A DNA stretch of 64,000 bases from Vampirovibrio sp. (lineage in GTDB: Bacteria; Cyanobacteriota; Vampirovibrionia; Vampirovibrionales; JAJTHC01), in NCBI GenBank assembly GCA_050916035.1, contig CP050876.1, forward strand, positions 410,372 through 474,371, given 5' to 3'. Within the stretch, counting starts at the first letter, position 1. Every line of letters begins with the position of its first letter. This document shows positions 1,097 to 51,646 of the stretch, piece by piece. The notes beneath the pieces were generated by a model. That model worked only from the letters and a program-made list of their open reading frames with translations. It was not told where the DNA came from and searched no databases. The translations under genes were made by a program, and so were the position numbers.

Positions 1097-2602
1097 TTAC
1101 GGGATCTTAAAAAACGCTTTGCACCGTTGGCGGAATGTTTTACTGGGCAATATAGAGATTATGCAGCGTAGTAAAGCGCTTTGACGCGATGATCGAATTT
1201 GATCTTGAGGCGTTTGCATCTTGCACACAAAAATTTCTAAGGCGGTGGGTTTTCGCTTTCTTTGTATCTTAATACGCTGTAAACGATGATTCGAGGGAAA
1301 CTGTTGATGACAGGACACTAAGTGCTTTGAAAAACCCTCAGGCAAGTGGTCACGCTCTAAAATATCGTATAAAGTCTGTGACACCGTAGGCGTATTAAGC
1401 GCTAAAACTGCTTTTTCAATCAGGGCTTCTGGCGTCTCACAAAAAATACCCGCTTCCTGAAAGGTATCCAATTCATTCAACGGCGTTTTCAACGTCAGAC
1501 AAGGAATATTGTATTTAGCAATGTCTAGTAAAGCGGTAAAAGAACTCATCGGAAAGCTATCCATGGCTAAATCCGCCAAACCCAAATACAGCTCTAGTTC
1601 ATTATGGGGAATTTCTCCAAGGCAAAATATTCTCCCCGAGGAAAGCGCCACTGTATTTTGCCAATGTTCATCCGTTTCACTAGGGCCAATCGCCAGTAAC
1701 ACCGCTTCAGGCACCCTATTTAAAATAGACTGCAGGGTAGTCATAAAATCGTAAGGAGCAAACGGTTTATATTTATAGGATGACGCCATGGTGAGCACCA
1801 CTTTAGCCTTCATAGAAATACCTAATCGCTTTTTCAAGGCAGTATTATGGTCCGTATGCTTCATCAAGGGATCAGGCTGTTCAAGGGGTAAGGGCAAAAG
1901 ACATTGCTTACGAATCCCTCGATGCCATTGATTAAATTCGGTAGAAAACGTTCTTAAATTCACCACTAAGTCTGAAATACTCGCCCCAAGCCAAAAAAGA
2001 TGATCCGCATGATTAAAAAACACCACGGGTCTTAAAAAATCTGCCGTCCCAAAAGCCAGCAAAGGCACCATATCATTCATGTGAACCTGTAAAATAACGG
2101 CTTCATAAGCACTTGCCTGTTTTCTTAAGGCCAACGCTTTTTCTATAAAAGGAGAAGCAGGCGGTAAAATAGTCAGGCTCCCGCCACAGTTCGTGACCAG
2201 TTTTTCTAACAAAGGGGGTAAATTCAGAGGGTCCTTCAAATCAGTGATTAACACCGAATGCTTAGAATGAGGCGGTGCATTTTTGATCCAACGCTCCAGC
2301 ACACGCGTATGCCCCCCTGTTAGATAAGGCGTCGTTAAAACATGTAAAAAAGTATTGGGTTTATACGAATTTTCCTGCTCAATCGTATGCCTTTGAGCCA
2401 CTTGTAACAAGGCTTCTTCCAGTTCAGGAAAAACCATGCGATTACACATATTCATCGTACAAAAAGTGGCAAGTTCGGCCAAGGCTTGTAATTTTTCCAC
2501 TTCTACTTTCTTCTTTAAGGCCCGTTTCAATTGGCGCAAAATATGTTTTTCATTATTTAGAATATAAGTTTCTATGGCTTGATCAGACATCACATTAGAC
2601 AT
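1097..2602 (-). CDS. glycosyltransferase, GT4-like (GT-B fold) with N- and C-terminal extensions
   Basis: '[20 protein letters not shown]' resembles the GT4 N-terminal motif. A C-terminal '[23 protein letters not shown]...ALLD' resembles the GT4 nucleotide-sugar binding region. Context is the glycan cluster. Confidence 0.4.
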
Positions 2603-3689
2603 ACGTATTCACCGCCTCCACCACACGAGACACTTGAGCCTTGCTTAAAACGGGTGATATCGGGAGGCTCAACACCTCTCGGTGGATTTGCTCCGTCACA
2701 GGGAAAGACGCCCTATTCCATTCAGGATACGCCTGTTGCTGATGAGGAGGAATCGGATAATGCACCAAGGTTTGAATCCCCTGCGCCTTTAAATAGTCTT
2801 GTAAGGCGTATCGATGGGCCGTTCGCACCACAAACAGGTGAAACACATGGGCCTGCCAATCTTGAACGGTGGGCAACACAATAGCGGGATTCTGAATCTC
2901 ACACAAGTAACGTTTCGCCACGTAACGACGCGCGTCATTACTGGCATCTAAATCAGGGAGCTTGACCTGAAGCACCGCCGCTTGCAGTTCATCCAATCGA
3001 GAGTTCACCCCCTGATAACGATTTTCATATTTTACGGCAGAGCCATAATTTCGCAGTATCGCTATTTTTTCGGCCAAGGCGTCGTCATGGGTCGTCACCG
3101 CGCCACCATCTCCTAATGCTCCCAAATTCTTACCTGGGTAGAAACTAAAACCTGTCGCATCCCCCAGAGACCCCACCCGTTCCTTACGATAAGGATAAAA
3201 CGCACCATGGGCTTGCGCTGCATCTTCAATCACTTTTAAGTTGTATTGTTTCGCCACCTGCAGGATAGGGCCCATATCAACCGCTTGACCATATAAATGC
3301 ACCACCATAATTGCCTTGGTTTTTGGCGTAATCGCCGATTCTATTTGAGCGCTGTTGATATTATACGTGTGCAAACAGGGTTCCACCAAAACGGGGGTCA
3401 ACTGATTTTGTGAAATCGCTAAAATACTGGCAATATAGGTATTGGCGGGGACAATCACTTCACTGCCTGCTTCAAACGCATAGGCCTTAAGAATCAGACT
3501 TAACGCATCCAAACCATTGGCCACCCCAATGCAATGTTTAACGCCGCAATAATCAGAAAAAGCCTGAGCGAATCGTTCATTTTCCTGCCCAAGGAGATAC
3601 CAGCCTGAGTCTAGCACACGCTGAAAAGCCTCGTCCAACGCAGGACGATACACCGCATTCATCGCCTTTAAATCAAGAAAAGGAATCAT
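2595..3689 (-). CDS. DegT/DnrJ/EryC1/StrS-family PLP-dependent sugar aminotransferase (FdtB/WecE-like)
   Basis: Typical family N-terminus '[40 protein letters not shown]...'. It sits near FdtA-like and FdtC-like genes. Confidence 0.8.
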
Positions 3690-26320: not shown

Positions 26321-26761
26321 ATGAATTATAAAGAACCTCCTTCGTCTTCGGCTCGCTTACATCAGCAACACGCTAAGCAATACGAAGCCCAGCAAATCAT
26401 GACCGCCAGTAAAGAACAATTACTCGTCATGCTTTATGACGGCTCCATTCGCTTTTGTAAAATTGCCAAAAAAGGTATTCATGAAAAAGACTATGAAAAA
26501 TCAAATACACACTTATTAAAAGCGCAGAATATCATTGCGGAATTTATGGCCAGCTTAGATTTAAAAATCGGAGGGGCTGTGGCAGAAAATTTAATGACCT
26601 TATACGAATATTTGCATCATGAATTGATACAAGCCAATATACAAAAAGACACGGCACGCGTTGACAATGTCCTAGGGCATTTAGTCGACCTTCGGCAAAC
26701 ATGGGTCAAAGCCATCGAATTAGCCCAAAAAGACGCCAAAGCCCAAGCAAACATACCCTAA
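26321..26761 (+). CDS. fliS: flagellar export chaperone FliS
   Basis: 'LLVMLYDGSIRFCKIAKKGI...LLKAQNIIAEFMASLDLKIGGAVAENLMTLYEYLHHELIQANIQKD' is typical of the FliS four-helix family. An AAGGA ribosome-binding site is present. Confidence 0.75.
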   Translation: MNYKEPPSSSARLHQQHAKQYEAQQIMTASKEQLLVMLYDGSIRFCKIAKKGIHEKDYEKSNTHLLKAQNIIAEFMASLDLKIGGAVAENLMTLYEYLHHELIQANIQKDTARVDNVLGHLVDLRQTWVKAIELAQKDAKAQANIP

Positions 26762-27238: not shown

Positions 27239-28564
27239 TTAACCACCATGGGACGACGCTCCCTCTGCGGGAGCGGGAGCTCCACCACCGCCACCAAAAT
27301 TAATCGTTGGCAAGCTAATATTGGCATGGCTGGCTTCTACCCATGTCCCAAAAACAGCCGCACATAATCCACCGATCACACCCCAACCCACGAGATGATC
27401 CAAAGGGGGTACATATTTTAAGAACTTACTTAAGGTATCCTTCTTTTTAAGGCTTAAAACGGCATGCGGATCAAAAGGAATCGGTAGATCCTCCATAGAC
27501 AAGCTCCCTTGCTTCGCACGGTTTAAAGGCTTTGTTTGACGAATCGCACGCAGGTTGGAAGATTTATCTTTAGCCCATGGCCATCTGACCCCTTGTTGCG
27601 TGTGCTGCTTAATACGAGGACGTCCCTCTGAACCTTTTCCATAGCGTCCGAGCTGACGTACCACAGGAAGCTTCCATAAATCTTCCGCAATACGAGACCC
27701 TAAATCATGTTCTAATTCTTCGGTAAAGGCTTTACGGTAATAACGCATTTCTTTGCTTGGCTTATGTTCAATGACGTCAAAGGCATAACCAGAAGGATGC
27801 CCCCGACGATCGACAATATTGTCCGCCGTAATGGTGGCTTGAGCTTGAGTCCCTAAGACACTGGCCCGATAACGCGTGGAGGGTTCATCCAAGAATTGAA
27901 CATCTAAAAAGGGACTGTTATAACGCGTATTGTTTGGATCTAGCAAACGCGCTACGGGTTCATAGGCGGTTAAAAAACCAAAAAATCCATTGCGTTTAGA
28001 CCTTAAAATACTGACACTTTCCCCCGTGGGATTTTGACCCGCTTGTTTCCAAAAATCATTTTTAGACCCCACCCCATTTTTTTGATACCGCACGCGATAA
28101 AAGTGACCGTCTTCTCCACGACCCGCTAAAATCTGGCCAGGAACCAGCTTGCCGTCTTCTTCGGCTTGTCGAATTTTGGTATAGTGAAGGAGCCCCTTAA
28201 TCATCACCGCCAAGGTAAAGCCTTCGCTAAAATGTCCGACAACATTCAAGGTACTGCCTTGTAAAAATTCGATTTTAGAATCGTCCTTTTCTTTGGTCAA
28301 CACAGAAGACAAAAGGCGATTGAGTAAGGGATCTCTTTCTATACTACCGTTTTTATTTTCTTCTTTTTTCTCTTCACCTTCTTCTTTCACGTGCTTGGCA
28401 TGGGTCGCTTGCTGAGCCAAAGTCGCCTTAGACACATTACCCAAGGTGGCAAGATCTGCTCCGCCTGCCCCATGAGCGACATGAGCCTCTTGACCTTGGC
28501 GTGCCAAGGAAGCAGAAGTCGTCAGAGTGGGCATCATTGAAAAAGGAGTCATCATAAAATGCAT
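27239..28564 (-). CDS. hypothetical protein with C-terminal transmembrane anchor and Gly-rich tail
   Basis: 441 aa with no recognisable domain. A C-terminal 'VGWGVIGGLCAAVFGTWV' is followed by 'GGGGGAPAPAEGASSHGG'. Confidence 0.4.
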   Translation of the reverse strand: MHFMMTPFSMMPTLTTSASLARQGQEAHVAHGAGGADLATLGNVSKATLAQQATHAKHVKEEGEEKKEENKNGSIERDPLLNRLLSSVLTKEKDDSKIEFLQGSTLNVVGHFSEGFTLAVMIKGLLHYTKIRQAEEDGKLVPGQILAGRGEDGHFYRVRYQKNGVGSKNDFWKQAGQNPTGESVSILRSKRNGFFGFLTAYEPVARLLDPNNTRYNSPFLDVQFLDEPSTRYRASVLGTQAQATITADNIVDRRGHPSGYAFDVIEHKPSKEMRYYRKAFTEELEHDLGSRIAEDLWKLPVVRQLGRYGKGSEGRPRIKQHTQQGVRWPWAKDKSSNLRAIRQTKPLNRAKQGSLSMEDLPIPFDPHAVLSLKKKDTLSKFLKYVPPLDHLVGWGVIGGLCAAVFGTWVEASHANISLPTINFGGGGGAPAPAEGASSHGG

Positions 28565-28751
28565 GAAGAGAAAGACCTCAGTTAAAAAGGAGAAAGAACC
28601 TTACCATTTAGGCTTCTTTCAGCCATCAACAGTAAAAAGGCGACGTGAAATCCGTACGGAGCAAAGATCCAAACGTCAGGAAACACTTTCCCTACTATAC
28701 TGGATTTCTTATTTCGATACAAGGTTTACAAACGCTTAAAACCCACTGCCA

Positions 28752-29960
28752 TTATTTTTGTGCGTTTTGGGGTTTAGATTTTTTCACTTTTTCAGCATTC
28801 ACAATCTGCCCGTTTTCATCAAAAATCGGCAAATGTTGTTCTTCAATAGGTTTCATGGTTTCTACTAGGGGCGCTTGACTAGTTTTAATCGTATTTTTGA
28901 TGGGTTTTGACGCTTTTTGTGTAATTGGGGTGGACGTGCTTGCCTCTGTTGGAGGCTCTACTGGAGCAATATCCGCCTTAAGCACAGGCGTAATATCCAC
29001 AGGGGTTTCTTTGGCCCGCTTATTTTCAATACTAAAACGATGATTTTGATCAATCAATATTTTTTCTTTACGGTGTTGTCGAATGGGGTCCGAATGGTTT
29101 TCCCCCGCACGGCTGTGAAGAATAATATCAATGCGTCTGTTTTTAGCCCGATTACTCGGCGTACTGTTGGACGTTACAGGGCGACTGTCTGCATAGCCCA
29201 CCGCCACTAAATCAGACGGTGTAAACTTATGGTGGTCTATAAAATAGCGTACCACCGTACAGGCACGAGCAGAAGATAATTCCCAATTCGATGGGTAACG
29301 TCCAAAAATAGCGGTATTGTCGGTATGTCCTTCAATATGAATCAGATGCGTTGGGACGCTTTTAAGTAAACGACTGGCGATTTCATCCACAAAGCGAAGG
29401 CTTTTGGGATTTAAATTGGCTTCTCCTGAAGGAAAAAGTAAACGACTGTCAAAACTAATTTTTAAGCCTCGTTCCTGTAATGTCACTTCTAAACCCCGTA
29501 ACGGGACTCCCTCTTTCCCGTCGACTTGTTCTTTCAAACCGAGAGCTGGACTTAAATTTTCGGCCCCCATTGCATCTTTCAATTTTTCAGCAAGACCATT
29601 CGCCACTTCGTCTAATTCTTCCATCAAGTCTTCTAGAGCCTTTTTTTCCCCTTGGGTTAAGGTTAAGCTATCGAATTGACCAATCACCCCTTCGCCTTTT
29701 CCTGTTTCTTCAAACATCGGGTTAGGTTTGTCCGTCGGCGTACTTTGCCCTGTGAGAACTGAAGAGATCCCTTTTAAAAGCGTTTCTTGTTGAAAGGATT
29801 TTTTAATTTCTTGCGCCACCCCCGTGCTGTCTGTTAATTTGGAGGTGGCAATAGCGTACAAGGCGGTAAACGTGGCAAATAACAAGGTAATAAAATCAGC
29901 ATAAGACACCAGCCAACGTTCTAGATTTTCATGTTCAGGGTGTTTTTTATGCCGTGCCAT
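28752..29960 (-). CDS. MotB-like protein (OmpA-family C-terminal domain) with long C-terminal extension
   Basis: 'WLVSYADFITLLFATFTALYA' is a MotB-type transmembrane/plug region and 'IEGHTDNTAIFGRYPSNWELSSARACTVVRYF' is an OmpA-like peptidoglycan-binding motif. There is no motA adjacent. The start is ATG at 29960 or GTG at 29996. Confidence 0.65.
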   Translation of the reverse strand: MARHKKHPEHENLERWLVSYADFITLLFATFTALYAIATSKLTDSTGVAQEIKKSFQQETLLKGISSVLTGQSTPTDKPNPMFEETGKGEGVIGQFDSLTLTQGEKKALEDLMEELDEVANGLAEKLKDAMGAENLSPALGLKEQVDGKEGVPLRGLEVTLQERGLKISFDSRLLFPSGEANLNPKSLRFVDEIASRLLKSVPTHLIHIEGHTDNTAIFGRYPSNWELSSARACTVVRYFIDHHKFTPSDLVAVGYADSRPVTSNSTPSNRAKNRRIDIILHSRAGENHSDPIRQHRKEKILIDQNHRFSIENKRAKETPVDITPVLKADIAPVEPPTEASTSTPITQKASKPIKNTIKTSQAPLVETMKPIEEQHLPIFDENGQIVNAEKVKKSKPQNAQK

Positions 29961-30063
29961 TCGGTGACTTTCTCTTCTCTTACACGCTTTACTCACGATT
30001 CATTGCTTTTTTAGTATAAGGGATGAACACAGAAGATACGGGCGAAAGTATTCAAAATTCATA

Positions 30064-47713: not shown

Positions 47714-48070
47714 ATGAACGATTATATTCAATACGAGTTGTCTAAAGCCCAATGGAATCAGATAAAAGAGGCTCTACCTGGTCAGTCGCATCATAGAGGA
47801 CGCACTGCCGAAAACAACCGTCTTTTTGTAGAAGCAGTATTATGGATGGGGCGAAACGGGGGAAGATGGAGGTCGCTTCCCTATTATTACGGCAAGTGGA
47901 GCAGTGTTCACAAGCGCTTCATTCGTTGGGCGAAACAAGGCATTTGGCAAATGATTTTCAACACCCTTGCCACATCGGCAGATACCGAATGGCTTATGAT
48001 TGATTCGACGATTATTCGCGCCCACCAGTGTTCAGCAGGGGCAAAAAAAGTGCCGGAAAACAAGCGTTAG
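47714..48070 (+). CDS. IS transposase OrfA
   Basis: Identical to the 5694..6050 product. Confidence 0.8.
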   Translation: MNDYIQYELSKAQWNQIKEALPGQSHHRGRTAENNRLFVEAVLWMGRNGGRWRSLPYYYGKWSSVHKRFIRWAKQGIWQMIFNTLATSADTEWLMIDSTIIRAHQCSAGAKKVPENKR

Positions 48071-48474
48071 GACGATCGTCAGGGGGCTATACGAGCAAGC
48101 TTCACGCCGTTTGTGACAGCCACGGCAACCCCGTTCGCTTTATCGTCACCGCAGGGCAGGTTTCCGACTCAACCCAAGCCATCCCTTTGTTAAAAGGGCT
48201 TGAAGCCACGGCGGTTTTGGCGGACAAGGGCTATGTTTCAGAACAAATATTTGAGGCGATTCACCTCATGGGGGCTGAAGTGGTCATCCCTAATAAAAGC
48301 AATGCGGTGGCTCCTCGTCAAGTCGATTACTTCCTTTACAAGGCTCGCCACTTGGTAGAAAACTTGTTTAAAGACCTTAAAAACTTCAGGCGAATGGCAA
48401 CCCGTTACGATAAATTAGATGTGGCTTATTTGTCTTTTGTTCATCTTGCTTCTATTTGTTTATGGCTTAAGTAA
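48028..48474 (+). CDS. IS transposase OrfB (DDE), -1 frame relative to OrfA
   Basis: Identical to the 5290..5736 product. It overlaps the A7G slippery site. Confidence 0.8.
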   Translation: MFSRGKKSAGKQALGRSSGGYTSKLHAVCDSHGNPVRFIVTAGQVSDSTQAIPLLKGLEATAVLADKGYVSEQIFEAIHLMGAEVVIPNKSNAVAPRQVDYFLYKARHLVENLFKDLKNFRRMATRYDKLDVAYLSFVHLASICLWLK

Positions 48475-48598
48475 ATGTCGACACTACCTAAGTTTAACGT
48501 TAAAACATGTAACAATCTATTCAAGCATTTTAAAAAAGTAACCGACCCATTTAAAGACCTTCATTTCCATCACAAACCCTTTCCAGAGGAGCTTCATC

Positions 48599-49027
48599 AT
48601 GTTGAATCGACACAAGCAAGACGCCTTTACCCTCATCGAACTTGGGGTGATTATTGCTATTATTGGCGTAATGTCCGCCGTCGCCGTCACACAAATGATG
48701 GATTTGACAGGCAATGCCGAAGCAGCCGTTTTAGAAGATTATCTACAAAAATTAAATTCGGGATCTGCTCAGTTTTTGGCTTATAGGGGCCGTCGTCCAA
48801 CGGGCTTTGGTGAATTTATGGCCGCCACCAACGCCGATTTAGACCCCGACACGGGCCTTGTGGTGCCCTTACTGTATAGCAAAAGTGGAGATGAAATGTG
48901 CGGAACCACGGCCCCTGGGGATGATGCCGAAACCCTCACCTGTGATGGTGAAGGCTTGGCCAACCGTAAAGCCGTGTATACCCTTGACAACGGCATGGTC
49001 ACCATGGTGTTAACCAACGTCGATTAA
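48599..49027 (+). CDS. prepilin-type N-terminal cleavage/methylation domain protein (type IV pilin / pseudopilin-like), orphan
   Basis: 'MLNRHKQDAFTLIELGVIIAIIGVMSAVAV' is a class III leader plus the FTLIE N-methylation motif and a hydrophobic helix. It has Ala rather than Gly at position -1. Two Cys in the C-terminal half could form a disulfide loop. Confidence 0.65.
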   Translation: MLNRHKQDAFTLIELGVIIAIIGVMSAVAVTQMMDLTGNAEAAVLEDYLQKLNSGSAQFLAYRGRRPTGFGEFMAATNADLDPDTGLVVPLLYSKSGDEMCGTTAPGDDAETLTCDGEGLANRKAVYTLDNGMVTMVLTNVD

Positions 49028-49583: not shown

Positions 49584-49976
49584 ATGGATTCTTATCGTCA
49601 AGATTTAAGAGAATTACTGAGAGATGGCTCCTTAAGCCAACGTCAACAATTGACGATTCGTCTCATGTATCAACATTACGGTAAAAAACATAGTATCTAC
49701 CTCATTCTCGTGACCACCTTAGGCTGGCTGGGCATTCACCGATACTATGTCGACAGTGACGTCATGAACGGCCTGATGAGTCCCCTCTGTTTGAGCTTTC
49801 CTTTGGTGGCGCCTTTACTTTATTTAAGCCAACATAAAGAGGCTTGGTTCTTTGGTCTAGGGTGGCTTGCCCTGCTTTATATCATTGCGTTATGTGAAGT
49901 GCCGTTTCACTGGCTTAAAATCAAGCGTAACAACACGGATTTAAAACAATTTTTGCAAGAACACGTCAAGAATTAG
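49584..49976 (+). CDS. TM2-domain membrane protein
   Basis: 'LILVTTLGWLGIHRYYVDSD' matches the TM2 signature (GxxGxHRFYxG-like). A second hydrophobic helix is present. Confidence 0.55.
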   Translation: MDSYRQDLRELLRDGSLSQRQQLTIRLMYQHYGKKHSIYLILVTTLGWLGIHRYYVDSDVMNGLMSPLCLSFPLVAPLLYLSQHKEAWFFGLGWLALLYIIALCEVPFHWLKIKRNNTDLKQFLQEHVKN

Positions 49977-50020
49977 GTCAACACCACAAGGCCATCACTT
50001 GCTTTTCACTTGACAACTTT

Positions 50021-50050
50021 TGAAATCCTATGCTAGCCTTAACTTATCAT
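50021..50050 (+). promoter_or_regulatory. candidate sigma70 promoter for the metY leader (TTGAAA-N18-TATCAT)
   Basis: Sequence match only. It is positioned about 30 nt upstream of the leader-peptide ribosome-binding site. Confidence 0.3.
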
Positions 50051-50078
50051 TTAACTTTAGATTGCATAGGATGTTTAC

Positions 50079-50204
50079 ATGCGTTTTACTTCCCCCTCTA
50101 GATATTGTATGTGTGTGGACTTATTCCTCATGCCATGCATGCCCATGATGCCCTGCATGGGTCGAGGTGAGCTTTCTTTGAAACACTTCTCTTCTTTCAC
50201 GTAA
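50079..50204 (+). CDS. candidate attenuator leader peptide, Met/Cys-rich (MRFTSPSRYCMCVDLFLMPCMPMMPCMGRGELSLKHFSSFT)
   Basis: AGGA lies 7 nt upstream of the ATG at 50079. The 41 codons include 7 Met and 4 Cys, concentrated in 'MPCMPMMPCM'. It lies in the 5' leader of metY and overlaps the antiterminator arm. Confidence 0.45.
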   Translation: MRFTSPSRYCMCVDLFLMPCMPMMPCMGRGELSLKHFSSFT

Positions 50205-50274
50205 CGTAAAGAAATAAAGTGTCTTTTCCAAGTTTCAAGCATCCCCTCGACCCACCAGTCTCGGGGATTTTTTG
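50159..50274 (+). promoter_or_regulatory. alternative antiterminator/terminator structures in the metY leader
   Basis: The terminator is ATCCCC-TC-GAC-CCACCA-GTC-TC-GGGGAT (50241..50268) followed by TTTTTT (50268..50273). GGGTCGAGG (50159..50167) is exactly complementary to CCTCGACCC (50245..50253), which is the 5' arm of the terminator. Confidence 0.5.
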
Positions 50275-50338
50275 AATATCGGATTCTGCCTCAAGGGTGA
50301 ATCCCCCGACCATTGATTAAACCAATAAGGAAGAACTT

Positions 50339-51646
50339 ATGTCTCAGTCCCCTGAAAATACTCATTTTGAAACCACCGCCTTACACGCGGGCTACACGCC
50401 AGATGAAACACATTCACGCGCCGTTCCCCTACACCAAACCACAAGCTACGTCTTTGACAATGCCGAACATGCCGCCAATTTATTTGGTCTAAAAGCCTTT
50501 GGCAACATTTATACTCGGCTCATGAACCCCACCAATGATGTCTTTGAAAAACGCATTGCTGAATTAGAAGGCGGTGTGGCGGCTCTGGCGTTGTCATCTG
50601 GGCATTCTGCGGTCGTTGCCACTATTTTAACCCTTGCCCAAGCAGGAGACCACTTGGTGGCCGCAACAGATTTATACGGCGGGACTTTGAGTTTATTCAC
50701 CCATTCATTAAAGCGTTTAGGCATTAGCGTGACTTTTGTGTCTGCCAATAATATCAGTGAATGGGAAGAAGCCATTCAACCCAATACCAAGCTCTTTTTC
50801 GCGGAAAGCTTGCCGAATCCACGGCTTGAAATTGTGGATCTCGAACCTATTGCAGCCCTTGGTAAAACATACGGGATTCCCTTGGTCGTGGACAATACCA
50901 TTCCCACCCCGTATTTGTTAAAACCCATTGAATTTGGCGCCGCGATTGTTATTCATTCCGCGACGAAATTTATTGGGGGGCAAGGGCTTTCTGTCGGAGG
51001 GGTCATCGTCGACAGTGGGCAATTTGATTGGGCCGGTAGCGGACGCTTCCCCCTATTAACAGAGCCTGAAGCGGCGTACCACGGCCTAAAATTCACCGAA
51101 GCCTTTGGGGCATTGGCCTTTATTTTACGAGCCAGAACCGTCACCTTGCGTGATTTTGGTTTTGCCTTAAGCCCCTTTAATGGCTGGACCTTTATTCAAG
51201 GGCTAGAAACCTTGTCGCTTCGGATTGAACGCCACAGTCAAAATGCACTAAAAGTCGCGCAATGGTTGGAAGTTCACCCTGAAGTCGAATGGGTCAACTA
51301 CCCTGGTTTGGCGTCGAGTCGAACCGCTCACTTAAACGCCAAATATCTACCCAAAGGGCAAGGGGCCGTCTTGGGCTTTGGCGTCAAAAAAGGGGCAAAC
51401 GTGGCAAAAGCATTGGTGGAAAACACGACGCTTGCCAGTCATTTGGCCAATATTGGAGACACCAAAACCCTGATTATTCACCCTGCCAGCACCACCCATA
51501 GTCAACAAACCGAAGCCGAACAACACGCGGCGGGTCTCGCGCCCAATTATGTGCGACTCAGTGTGGGGATTGAACACGTCGACGACATCATCGCCGACTT
51601 GGACCGTGCCTTTCAAAAAGCCACTCAGTCCACCGCAACGGTTTAA
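50339..51646 (+). CDS. metY: O-acetylhomoserine (thiol)-lyase / O-acetylhomoserine sulfhydrylase (Cys/Met-metabolism PLP family)
   Basis: 'TTALHAGYTPDETHSRAVPLHQTTSYVFDNAEHAANLFGLKAFGNIYTRLMNPT' and the PLP-lysine region 'HSATKFIGGQG' are present. Length is 435 aa. Confidence 0.9.
   Translation: MSQSPENTHFETTALHAGYTPDETHSRAVPLHQTTSYVFDNAEHAANLFGLKAFGNIYTRLMNPTNDVFEKRIAELEGGVAALALSSGHSAVVATILTLAQAGDHLVAATDLYGGTLSLFTHSLKRLGISVTFVSANNISEWEEAIQPNTKLFFAESLPNPRLEIVDLEPIAALGKTYGIPLVVDNTIPTPYLLKPIEFGAAIVIHSATKFIGGQGLSVGGVIVDSGQFDWAGSGRFPLLTEPEAAYHGLKFTEAFGALAFILRARTVTLRDFGFALSPFNGWTFIQGLETLSLRIERHSQNALKVAQWLEVHPEVEWVNYPGLASSRTAHLNAKYLPKGQGAVLGFGVKKGANVAKALVENTTLASHLANIGDTKTLIIHPASTTHSQQTEAEQHAAGLAPNYVRLSVGIEHVDDIIADLDRAFQKATQSTATV

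Follow-up and report, generated by a model that had tools for sequence, protein, structure and literature searches.

A putative methionine-codon leader-peptide attenuator upstream of metY in a narrow clade of Vampirovibrionales

The gene metY, encoding O-acetylhomoserine sulfhydrylase, lies in a stretch of 64,000 nucleotides (nt) of Vampirovibrio sp. DNA (contig CP050876.1, positions 410,372 to 474,371; hereafter the window, meaning the whole stretch analyzed), and the leader that separates it from its promoter is a candidate for transcription attenuation governed by the translation of methionine codons. Homologues of the gene carry the source name O-acetylhomoserine (thiol)-lyase. Features of the leader are collected in Table 1, together with the leader peptides of related loci, which are designated by L numbers. 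At its upstream end is a putative sigma-70-type promoter, with a gene for a TM2-domain protein (49584..49976) immediately upstream. The TTGACA and TGnTAnnnT positions of this promoter are invariant in an alignment of seven leaders (window and L001-L006), and transcription would start near 50046. A simple promoter and terminator scan listed neither this promoter nor the terminator hairpin at 50241-50268, omissions that can be attributed to the weak -10 hexamer in the first case and, in the second, to an internal loop that breaks the contiguous-stem rule.

Between promoter and metY lies a short open reading frame (ORF) preceded by a Shine-Dalgarno (SD) sequence. An initial annotation of the stretch, made from the letters alone, had placed this ORF at 50079..50204 with AGGA 7 nt upstream and had counted seven Met and four Cys among its 41 codons; direct reading of MRFTSPSRYCMCVDLFLMPCMPMMPCMGRGELSLKHFSSFT bears this out. 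In the segment MPCMPMMPCM all ten codons, rather than nine of ten as then claimed, specify Met, Pro or Cys. The window and L001-L006 have AGGA or AAGGAA ahead of the leader start codon. The leader holds the single maximum of ATG density in all six frames of the 64-kb window, six ATG in a stop-free stretch of 17 codons, and this density was reached in 0 of 100 first-order Markov randomizations. The only other spot in the window with five ATG (28514-28582, minus strand) is the N-terminus, MHFMMTPFSMMPTL, of ORF 27239..28564, a 441-amino-acid (aa) frame that has no Pfam match and lies between a motB/OmpA-like gene (28752..29996) and fliS (26321..26761); as the start of a 441-aa ORF beside flagellar genes, it was rejected as a second leader. 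A cluster of small ORFs (47714-49027) lies upstream of the region, and one of them (48599..49027) has an N-terminal methylation (type IV pilin-like) motif with a weak Pfam match.

The leader can fold into two structures that compete for the same strand. Within the ORF, GGGTCGAGG (50159-50167) is a perfect 9-nt complement of CCTCGACCC (50245-50253), exactly as first described; by simple arithmetic, such a perfect 9-mer match in some 120 nt of upstream sequence is expected at roughly 5e-4. In the fold of 50040-50340 (z = -3.08 against dinucleotide shuffles), this helix closes a long imperfect hairpin in both the minimum-free-energy (MFE) structure and the centroid. The helix has 50245-50251 in common with the stem of an intrinsic terminator, so that the two are mutually exclusive, in keeping with the original proposal. 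The terminator arms, ATCCCCTCGAC (50241-50251) and GTCTCGGGGAT (50258-50268), form six base pairs, a 2x2 internal loop and three further pairs around the loop CCACCA. The stem itself had been placed correctly at 50241..50268; of the six T said to follow it, the first (50268) closes the stem and five (50269-50273) remain. A local hairpin, CCCATG...CATGGG, designated 1:2, lies over the Met codons and ends at 50161 rather than at 50160 as annotated, and the early coordinates as a whole proved right to within one base. Across the leaders the 3' strand of hairpin 1:2 extends 2-4 nt into the start of the antiterminator 5' arm; the hairpin is a candidate pause or anti-antiterminator element. A further small hairpin separates the terminator from the metY SD, and just 3' of it comes CCCCCGACC (50303-50311), which is similar to the antiterminator 3' arm CCCCTCGACC.

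Table 1. Features of the metY leader in the window, and leader peptides of the related loci
Feature	Coordinates	Strand	Details
Putative sigma-70-type promoter	50010..50039	+	-35 TTGACA (50010-50015), 18-nt spacer, extended -10 TG (50031-50032), TAGCCT (50034-50039)
Leader-ORF Shine-Dalgarno AGGA	50068..50071	+	Spacing to ATG 7 nt
Leader ORF	50079..50204	+	41 codons, ATG 50079 to TAA 50202-50204, product MRFTSPSRYCMCVDLFLMPCMPMMPCMGRGELSLKHFSSFT
Regulatory codon cluster (putative)	50106..50159	+	Cys10, Met11, Cys12, Met18, Cys20, Met21, Met23, Met24, Cys26, Met27
Hairpin 1:2, CCCATG / CATGGG	50142..50161	+	Over Met codons; occupies first 3 nt of antiterminator 5' arm; local fold -10.6 kcal/mol
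Antiterminator domain (predicted)	50159..50253	+	5' arm GGGTCGAGG (50159-50167), long imperfect inner hairpin, 3' arm CCTCGACCC (50245-50253); dG (folding free energy) -34.3 kcal/mol
Intrinsic terminator (predicted)	50241..50273	+	Stem-loop 50241-50268, T-tract 50269-50273; local dG -12.0 kcal/mol
Small hairpin GGATTC...GAATCC, GGATTCTGCCTCAAGGGTGAATCC	50281..50304	+	Between terminator T-tract and metY SD; in MFE structure; conserved in L001 only
metY Shine-Dalgarno AAGGAAG	50327..50333	+	AAGGAA invariant in seven-leader alignment
metY, O-acetylhomoserine sulfhydrylase, 435 aa	50339..51646	+	Pfam PF01053 Cys_Met_Meta_PP, E = 1e-129; monocistronic in window
Leader peptide L001			MPFAPSSIHFMCMCMNLPMMPWTRRGELSLKHFPSFT
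Leader peptide L002			MNLTSCTMMMCCMMMPMPIGLGEHSLKKTRHSFES
Leader peptide L003			MNLTSCNMMMCMMMSMPVGLGEHSLKNCVILLNLK
Leader peptide L004			MNLTSCTIMCCMMMPMPIGLGEHSLKKTRHSFKF
Leader peptide L005			MNLTSCTMMMCMTMPMRIGLGEPSLKKASHSFEF
Leader peptide L006			MNFPTYTLMMCMMMPMPIGLGEPSLKKASHSFES
Leader peptide L083			MNSTPLNMMMCMMMPMPIGLGEHSLKQVRHSFES
Leader peptide L093			MNLPTYTCIMCMMMPMRIGLGEPSLKMASSFFEC
Leader peptide L096			MARDAFPQLNRFTRMMMGMMMPMMMRIIGLGKHPGTHECRLFIPITL
Leader peptide L098			MRSAISSHLTMPAPSTGSMMMMTMPMMRNIIGLEQCSGRPDTLTR
Leader peptide L101			MKDTSMIFTAMPSSMMMHIRTA

Twelve distinct metY leaders, in about five sequence lineages, could be compared: those of the window, L001-L006, L083, L093, L096, L098 and L101. 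Within this clade metY is 81-99% identical to that of the window. A protein scan with one genome per species gave six close loci (L001, 98% identical; L002-L006, 85-86%), five of them labeled as metagenome-assembled genomes (MAGs) of Vampirovibrionales, an order that the NCBI taxonomy places within the Cyanobacteriota/Melainabacteria group; the next matches, about 56% identical, came from other phyla. A DNA-pattern scan of metagenome contigs returned 14 stretches, of which three are real leaders (L083, L093 and L086, the same as L003), while the other 11 were discarded as chance matches inside unrelated sequence. The divergent leaders L096 and L101 (metY 81% identical) and L098 (84%) came from a protein search and the contigs encoding its matches. 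One record, L002 (JBEISK010000007.1), is titled as a 'Gammaproteobacteria bacterium' MAG; its metY (86%), leader and flanks match the Vampirovibrionales loci L004-L006, and it is probably mis-binned or mislabeled.

In 12 of the 12 leaders an ORF behind an SD carries a Met run, and antiterminator helix and terminator both recur, a breadth of conservation in orthologous leaders on which the initial annotation had staked its proposal. The ORF is 22-47 codons long (that of L096 is annotated in its source record as a 47-aa gene), and the Met run stands at the equivalent place each time, as in MPFAPSSIHFMCMCMNLPMMPW..., MMMCCMMMPMP, MMMGMMMPMMM, MMMMTMPMM and AMPSSMMMHIRTA (which includes SSMMMH). 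Kept in all five lineages are the ORF, the Met run, the 5' arm with its complement and the terminator; the arm reads GGTCGAGG in the lineage of the window and GGCTTAGG in general. Conservation does not extend to the peptide's N-terminal part, to the length of the ORF or to the C-terminal part (unrelated in L096 and L098, absent from L101). Between the arms, the inner hairpin measures 76-79 nt in 11 leaders and 34 nt in L101, where the frame relative to the arm also differs and a TAG within the 5' arm GGCTTAGG ends the ORF. In the L101 record, metY is called as a 493-aa gene from 2001 (2001-3482), engulfing leader ORF and attenuator, and the conserved N-terminus starts at the ATG at 2184; the next gene after metY there is metX/metW-like, with Abhydrolase_1 and MetW domains, and this attenuator may therefore control an operon.

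Both Met and Cys had been put forward as regulatory codons. The claim stands for Met, whose run is universal among the leaders, and is narrowed for Cys, which does not occur in the run in three of the five lineages (L096, L098, L101). Because of these three lineages, Met is, on the comparative record, the conserved regulatory codon and Cys a lineage-specific addition; in the two lineages with interleaved Cys codons, the window's among them, these may add sensitivity to cysteine. The motif M-P-M is nearly invariant across the leader peptides. Its Pro codon provides the C residues of hairpin 1:2, and could perhaps also slow peptide-bond formation.

Such a motif invites the thought that the peptide itself is what matters, either as a functional Met/Cys-rich micropeptide (binding Cu(I) or another metal, or sitting in the membrane) or as a sequence-specific nascent arrest peptide that does not sense tRNA charging. 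Met/Cys-rich motifs can bind soft metals. Besides M-P-M, a tail G-(L/R)-G-E-x-S-L-K is conserved in lineages A and B, the latter comprising L002-L006, L083 and L093, and some differences in the tail are synonymous (GGT/GGC, TCT/TCC, AAA/AAG). The tail, however, coincides with the antiterminator arm and inner stem, so constraints on the RNA account for it. The L101 peptide, read in a different frame, ends ...HIRTA before any tail, while the C-terminal parts in L096 and L098 are unrelated. Among 5.8 billion proteins, a profile of the leader peptides matched only three clusters, every one of this clade, and nothing there pointed to the peptide before a gene other than metY; a micropeptide tied always to metY and a terminator, and so narrowly distributed, makes this explanation very improbable.

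The run is also specific to the clade. When 88 metY loci were screened for a stop-free 10-codon window with at least four ATG within 500 nt upstream of metY, all 11 loci of the clade (metY at least 81% identical) were positive, and 0 of the 77 others. Among those 77 are three loci of the sister clade (L095, L102 and L103; metY 62-72% identical), which likewise have no Met-run ORF upstream of metY. Two of these sister loci, L095 (named Vampirovibrio sp.; 2788-2807) and L102 (1743-1762), with metY 71-72% identical, have an exact common 20-nt block, TACCCGAATGCGATAGCATC, in otherwise diverged 5' untranslated regions (UTRs); Rfam gave no match in these UTRs, and the block may be a different, undescribed regulatory element for metY. 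The genes upstream of the leader vary by lineage (TM2-domain, AhpC/redoxin, dCMP deaminase, dnaA, SduA_C), which indicates that the leader travels with metY. These observations bear on the simplest counterproposal, that a chance ORF happens to precede the terminator (50241-50273) of the upstream TM2-domain gene (49584-49976). Short ORFs are plentiful in the region, as this would require. Yet a conserved promoter intervenes between that gene and the leader, the leader stays with metY while upstream genes change, the Met density is unmatched in randomizations, and the Met run is found in 11/11 loci of the clade against 0/77 others; contradicted by the comparative data, a chance arrangement is extremely unlikely.

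A further competitor is an undescribed ligand-binding riboswitch for S-adenosylmethionine (SAM), S-adenosylhomocysteine (SAH) or methionine, with the hairpin 50159-50253 as aptamer, the terminator as expression platform and the ORF incidental. The RNA is strongly structured, as the z score above attests; a block GAGCNTTCYTTGAA and a matching TTTCAA are conserved in lineages A and B; and SAM riboswitches stand upstream of metY in many other phyla. Against this, Rfam gathering-score searches of the window and of the related and sister-clade loci returned no match, and at E <= 10 no SAM riboswitch (SAM-I/IV, SAM-II/V, SAM-III, SAM-VI, SAM-SAH), SAH riboswitch, T-box, or Trp, His, Leu, Thr or other leader family was found in 49950-50400. 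Two Rfam microRNA matches on the minus strand, which surfaced in the gathering-score search of the window and the E <= 10 search of the leader, were dismissed as junk. The same search of 20 metY loci from other phyla recovered SAM-I directly upstream in eight and SAM-II in one, so the negative result here is meaningful, and the early remark that the leader lacks an S-box-like core holds for the window and the related leaders alike. Lineages differ in the sequence of the inner domain, and L101 has 34 nt of it where the other leaders have 76-79 nt; that the domain is dispensable in this way argues against a ligand-binding aptamer. Conservation across all lineages is that of SD and ORF, Met run, two arms and terminator, and a riboswitch would leave the in-frame AUG run unexplained. 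We therefore regard it as very unlikely, and return to attenuation by a leader peptide.

Covariation and per-sequence folds are consistent with the attenuator. For the antiterminator, the anchored arm regions of the 12 leaders were spliced together into one alignment. Its 13-pair helix shows pairing in 85.9% of cells; shifting the 3' partner by 1-3 columns lowers this to 26-58%, and 0 of 500 shuffles attained the observed pairing or covariation score. Eight core pairs are formed in at least 10 leaders, mostly in all 12, and in the window and L001 three consecutive pairs are compensatory (C-G to U-A, U-A to C-G, U-A to G-C). This covariation can be taken as supportive rather than overwhelming. 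Since hairpin 1:2 and the terminator occur in different registers across lineages, they were assessed per sequence rather than column by column. A terminator hairpin with a T-rich tract folds in 12/12 leaders (-12.0 to -20.4 kcal/mol), as does the antiterminator domain (-17.7 to -35.4 kcal/mol); a 1:2 hairpin over the last Met codons folds in 11/12 (-6 to -15 kcal/mol), with sequences that vary by lineage (CCCATG/CATGGG, GCCGAT/ATCGGC, CCAATGATG/CATCATTGG).

How a ribosome would bias the choice was explored in silico by masking 28 nt around each successive A-site codon and computing pair probabilities at equilibrium. With the terminator complete, the window behaved as an attenuator should, with a terminator probability of 0 up to Met24 and of 0.6-0.99 from Pro25 to His36. 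Because folds of the complete leader reproduced the model for the window only, a second set used transcripts cut just before the 3' half of the terminator, which represents the moment of decision. Here the antiterminator has a probability of 0.66-0.93 in 11 of the 12 leaders when no ribosome is present, and this remains high with the A site anywhere up to and including the Met run. Once the A site is past the run, there is a clear drop in the window, L001-L004, L083, L096 and L101 (for example, from 0.7 to 0.2-0.4 in the window, and from 0.9 to 0.0-0.2 in L002 and in L101) and a less clear one in L006 and L098. By these folds, the Met run marks, in most leaders, the furthest point a ribosome can reach and stall without covering the antiterminator arm. 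In transcripts that carry no ribosome, antitermination, with read-through, is the predicted default, which differs from trp. The trp-type architecture originally invoked is retained in its elements and departs from trp in this predicted default.

Taken together, the conservation across 12 leaders, the covariation, the terminator and the geometry of the masked folds support the leader-peptide attenuation architecture first proposed, and we think it probable that the metY leader is a ribosome-mediated transcription attenuator that senses charged elongator Met-tRNA. Transcription would begin at the conserved promoter, and a ribosome would initiate on the 41-codon leader ORF. With Met-tRNA plentiful, the ribosome would pass the Met codons (50109-50159) into the 5' arm GGGTCGAGG and the inner hairpin, holding both unpaired; the freed 3' arm (50245-50253) would then pair with 50258-50268 as the terminator, and RNA polymerase would halt at the T-tract before reaching metY. 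With Met-tRNA scarce, the ribosome would stall in the Met run just upstream of the 5' arm, which would capture 50245-50253 once transcribed; the terminator would be blocked and metY transcribed. From the features described, we infer translation of the ORF, stalling, the efficiency of termination and the response to methionine.

Several points weigh against this mechanism. The logic is complicated by the fact that methionine starvation limits initiator tRNA too. With the complete terminator, 11 of the 12 leaders favor termination at equilibrium at most ribosome positions, so the switch must be kinetic, which is beyond proof by folding, and L005 and L093 show no clear drop even in cut transcripts, being uninformative because their segment 3 finds other upstream partners. 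In the long ORFs, a ribosome at the stop codon leaves the 5' arm uncovered again, and tight coupling of transcription and translation would then be needed for termination. Folding also indicates that hairpin 1:2 is a weak anti-antiterminator, given an overlap with the 5' arm of just 2-4 nt. L096 and L098 have the leader SD far from its start codon (12-13 nt), and L101 is possibly close to leaderless. All 12 leaders come from one narrow clade, and the antiterminator covariation amounts to roughly one evolutionary event (window and L001 against the rest).

Regulation might instead be mainly translational or act on mRNA stability, through UUCYUU (50174-50179) sequestering the AAGGAA SD of the leader ORF or of metY, or through an RNA-binding protein acting between terminator and metY. 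The block 50169-50182 (GAGCTTTCTTTGAA), found likewise in L001-L006, L083 and L093, contains an invariant TTCYTT; both the leader ORF and metY have an AAGGAA-type SD complementary to it. In the full-length MFE structures of lineage B, the leader SD region (UUAAGGAAUGC) pairs with this element (GCAUUCCUUGAA), which may form an extra layer that hides the leader SD, or may lead to termination without translation. Lineage B further has three to five TTAG/GTTAG repeats, about 6-8 nt apart, in an AU-rich stretch between the terminator and the metY SD, such as AATGTTAGTATGTTAGTATGTTCGTTTAGTGATGAG (L002, about 2940-2985); they may be a protein-binding or translational element. These repeats are absent from the window and L001, however, and L096, L098 and L101 have no TTCYTT at the corresponding place, whereas a canonical hairpin with U-tract, mutually exclusive with a conserved helix, is found in 12/12 leaders. 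Control chiefly at these later steps is accordingly quite improbable, and transcription attenuation by the Met-codon leader is preferred.

Textbook control of methionine genes is by SAM riboswitches, T-boxes and repressors such as MetJ, and to our knowledge methionine is missing among the amino acids with classical attenuators. If the present reading is correct, a conserved Met-codon attenuator would fill this gap, Met-tRNA charging rather than SAM could be the controlled variable, and leader-peptide attenuation would extend to non-photosynthetic relatives of cyanobacteria. On sequence and modeling grounds, the mechanism would be an old one, but its amino-acid specificity and phylogenetic setting would be new and its logic possibly default-ON. 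A trp-like design, in which lack of translation leads to termination, would shut the pathway when it is needed, since methionine starvation also starves initiation; here the antiterminator would be the default, and termination would require a ribosome that has cleared the Met run. Interleaved Cys codons would suit a sulfhydrylase at the junction of the Met and Cys pathways. The strongest version of these claims should be held tentatively: that this is the first well-supported AUG-run methionine-sensing attenuator and the first classical one in Cyanobacteriota/Melainabacteria, that it is a fail-safe ON switch, and that it is a Met/Cys dual sensor in the window's lineage are together possible, with the odds somewhat against all holding jointly. 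As far as seen, the element is confined to one narrow Vampirovibrionales clade and to one gene, metY. It is compact (about 230 nt) and directly testable in reporter or cell-free systems.

No established Met-codon attenuator was found in the literature, whose coverage here was incomplete, so that an earlier description is possible. A survey of attenuators describes leader peptides in Proteobacteria, Actinobacteria and, newly, Firmicutes only, with none for methionine (PMC2965389), and for cyanobacteria 'no reliable data' on attenuation are reported (PMC4833913). The closest proposal concerns Streptomyces lividans TK24, where a candidate 'metL' (…ARCMCRRMCAF) before metNIQ is put forward by its authors as a methionine-dependent attenuator (PMC8079986). 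As with the element here, metL precedes methionine-related genes and is a short ORF in which Met and Cys codons are interleaved. It differs in having only three internal Met codons, in being leaderless and in controlling a transporter rather than a biosynthetic gene; its authors report no typical Rho-independent terminator and call termination 'unclear' (PMC8079986), comparative or structural support is not given there, and the two are unrelated in sequence. In Actinobacteria, cys/cbs operons have Cys-codon leader ORFs without conserved terminator and antiterminator hairpins (PMC1262725), and polycysteine leaderless small ORFs of mycobacteria are reported to be cysteine responsive (bioRxiv 10.1101/834739). 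These too are sulfur-amino-acid genes with short upstream ORFs rich in the cognate codon, but theirs are Cys runs, whereas here Met is conserved, Cys is lineage specific, and a full terminator/antiterminator pair is present.

The resemblance to the classical attenuators of E. coli and Salmonella (trpL, hisL, leuL, thrL, pheL, ilvL) is extensive. Shared with them are an SD-preceded leader ORF with a cluster of end-product codons, an intrinsic terminator ahead of the first structural gene, an antiterminator using one strand of the terminator, an upstream hairpin over the regulatory codons, and a placement of these codons such that a stalled ribosome would leave the antiterminator strand free; the L101 stop codon, inside segment 2, is the textbook arrangement. 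The differences are that the regulatory codon here is AUG, that the element resembles no Rfam leader family in sequence or by covariance model, and that most of the leaders have a long ORF reaching about 45 nt into the antiterminator domain, with an inner hairpin of 76-79 nt. Relative to trp in particular, hairpin 1:2 overlaps segment 2 by 2-4 nt, with predicted read-through in the absence of translation as opposed to the super-attenuation of trp. A last comparison is with SAM-I (S-box, RF00162), found at the corresponding place directly before metY in 8 of the 20 loci from other phyla. SAM-I typically acts by a choice between terminator and antiterminator. It senses SAM through a conserved aptamer and without translation, while the element described here has no such aptamer and its proposed signal is Met-tRNA charging. 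One position before metY thus holds a SAM riboswitch in other phyla and, in this clade, what is probably a Met leader peptide.

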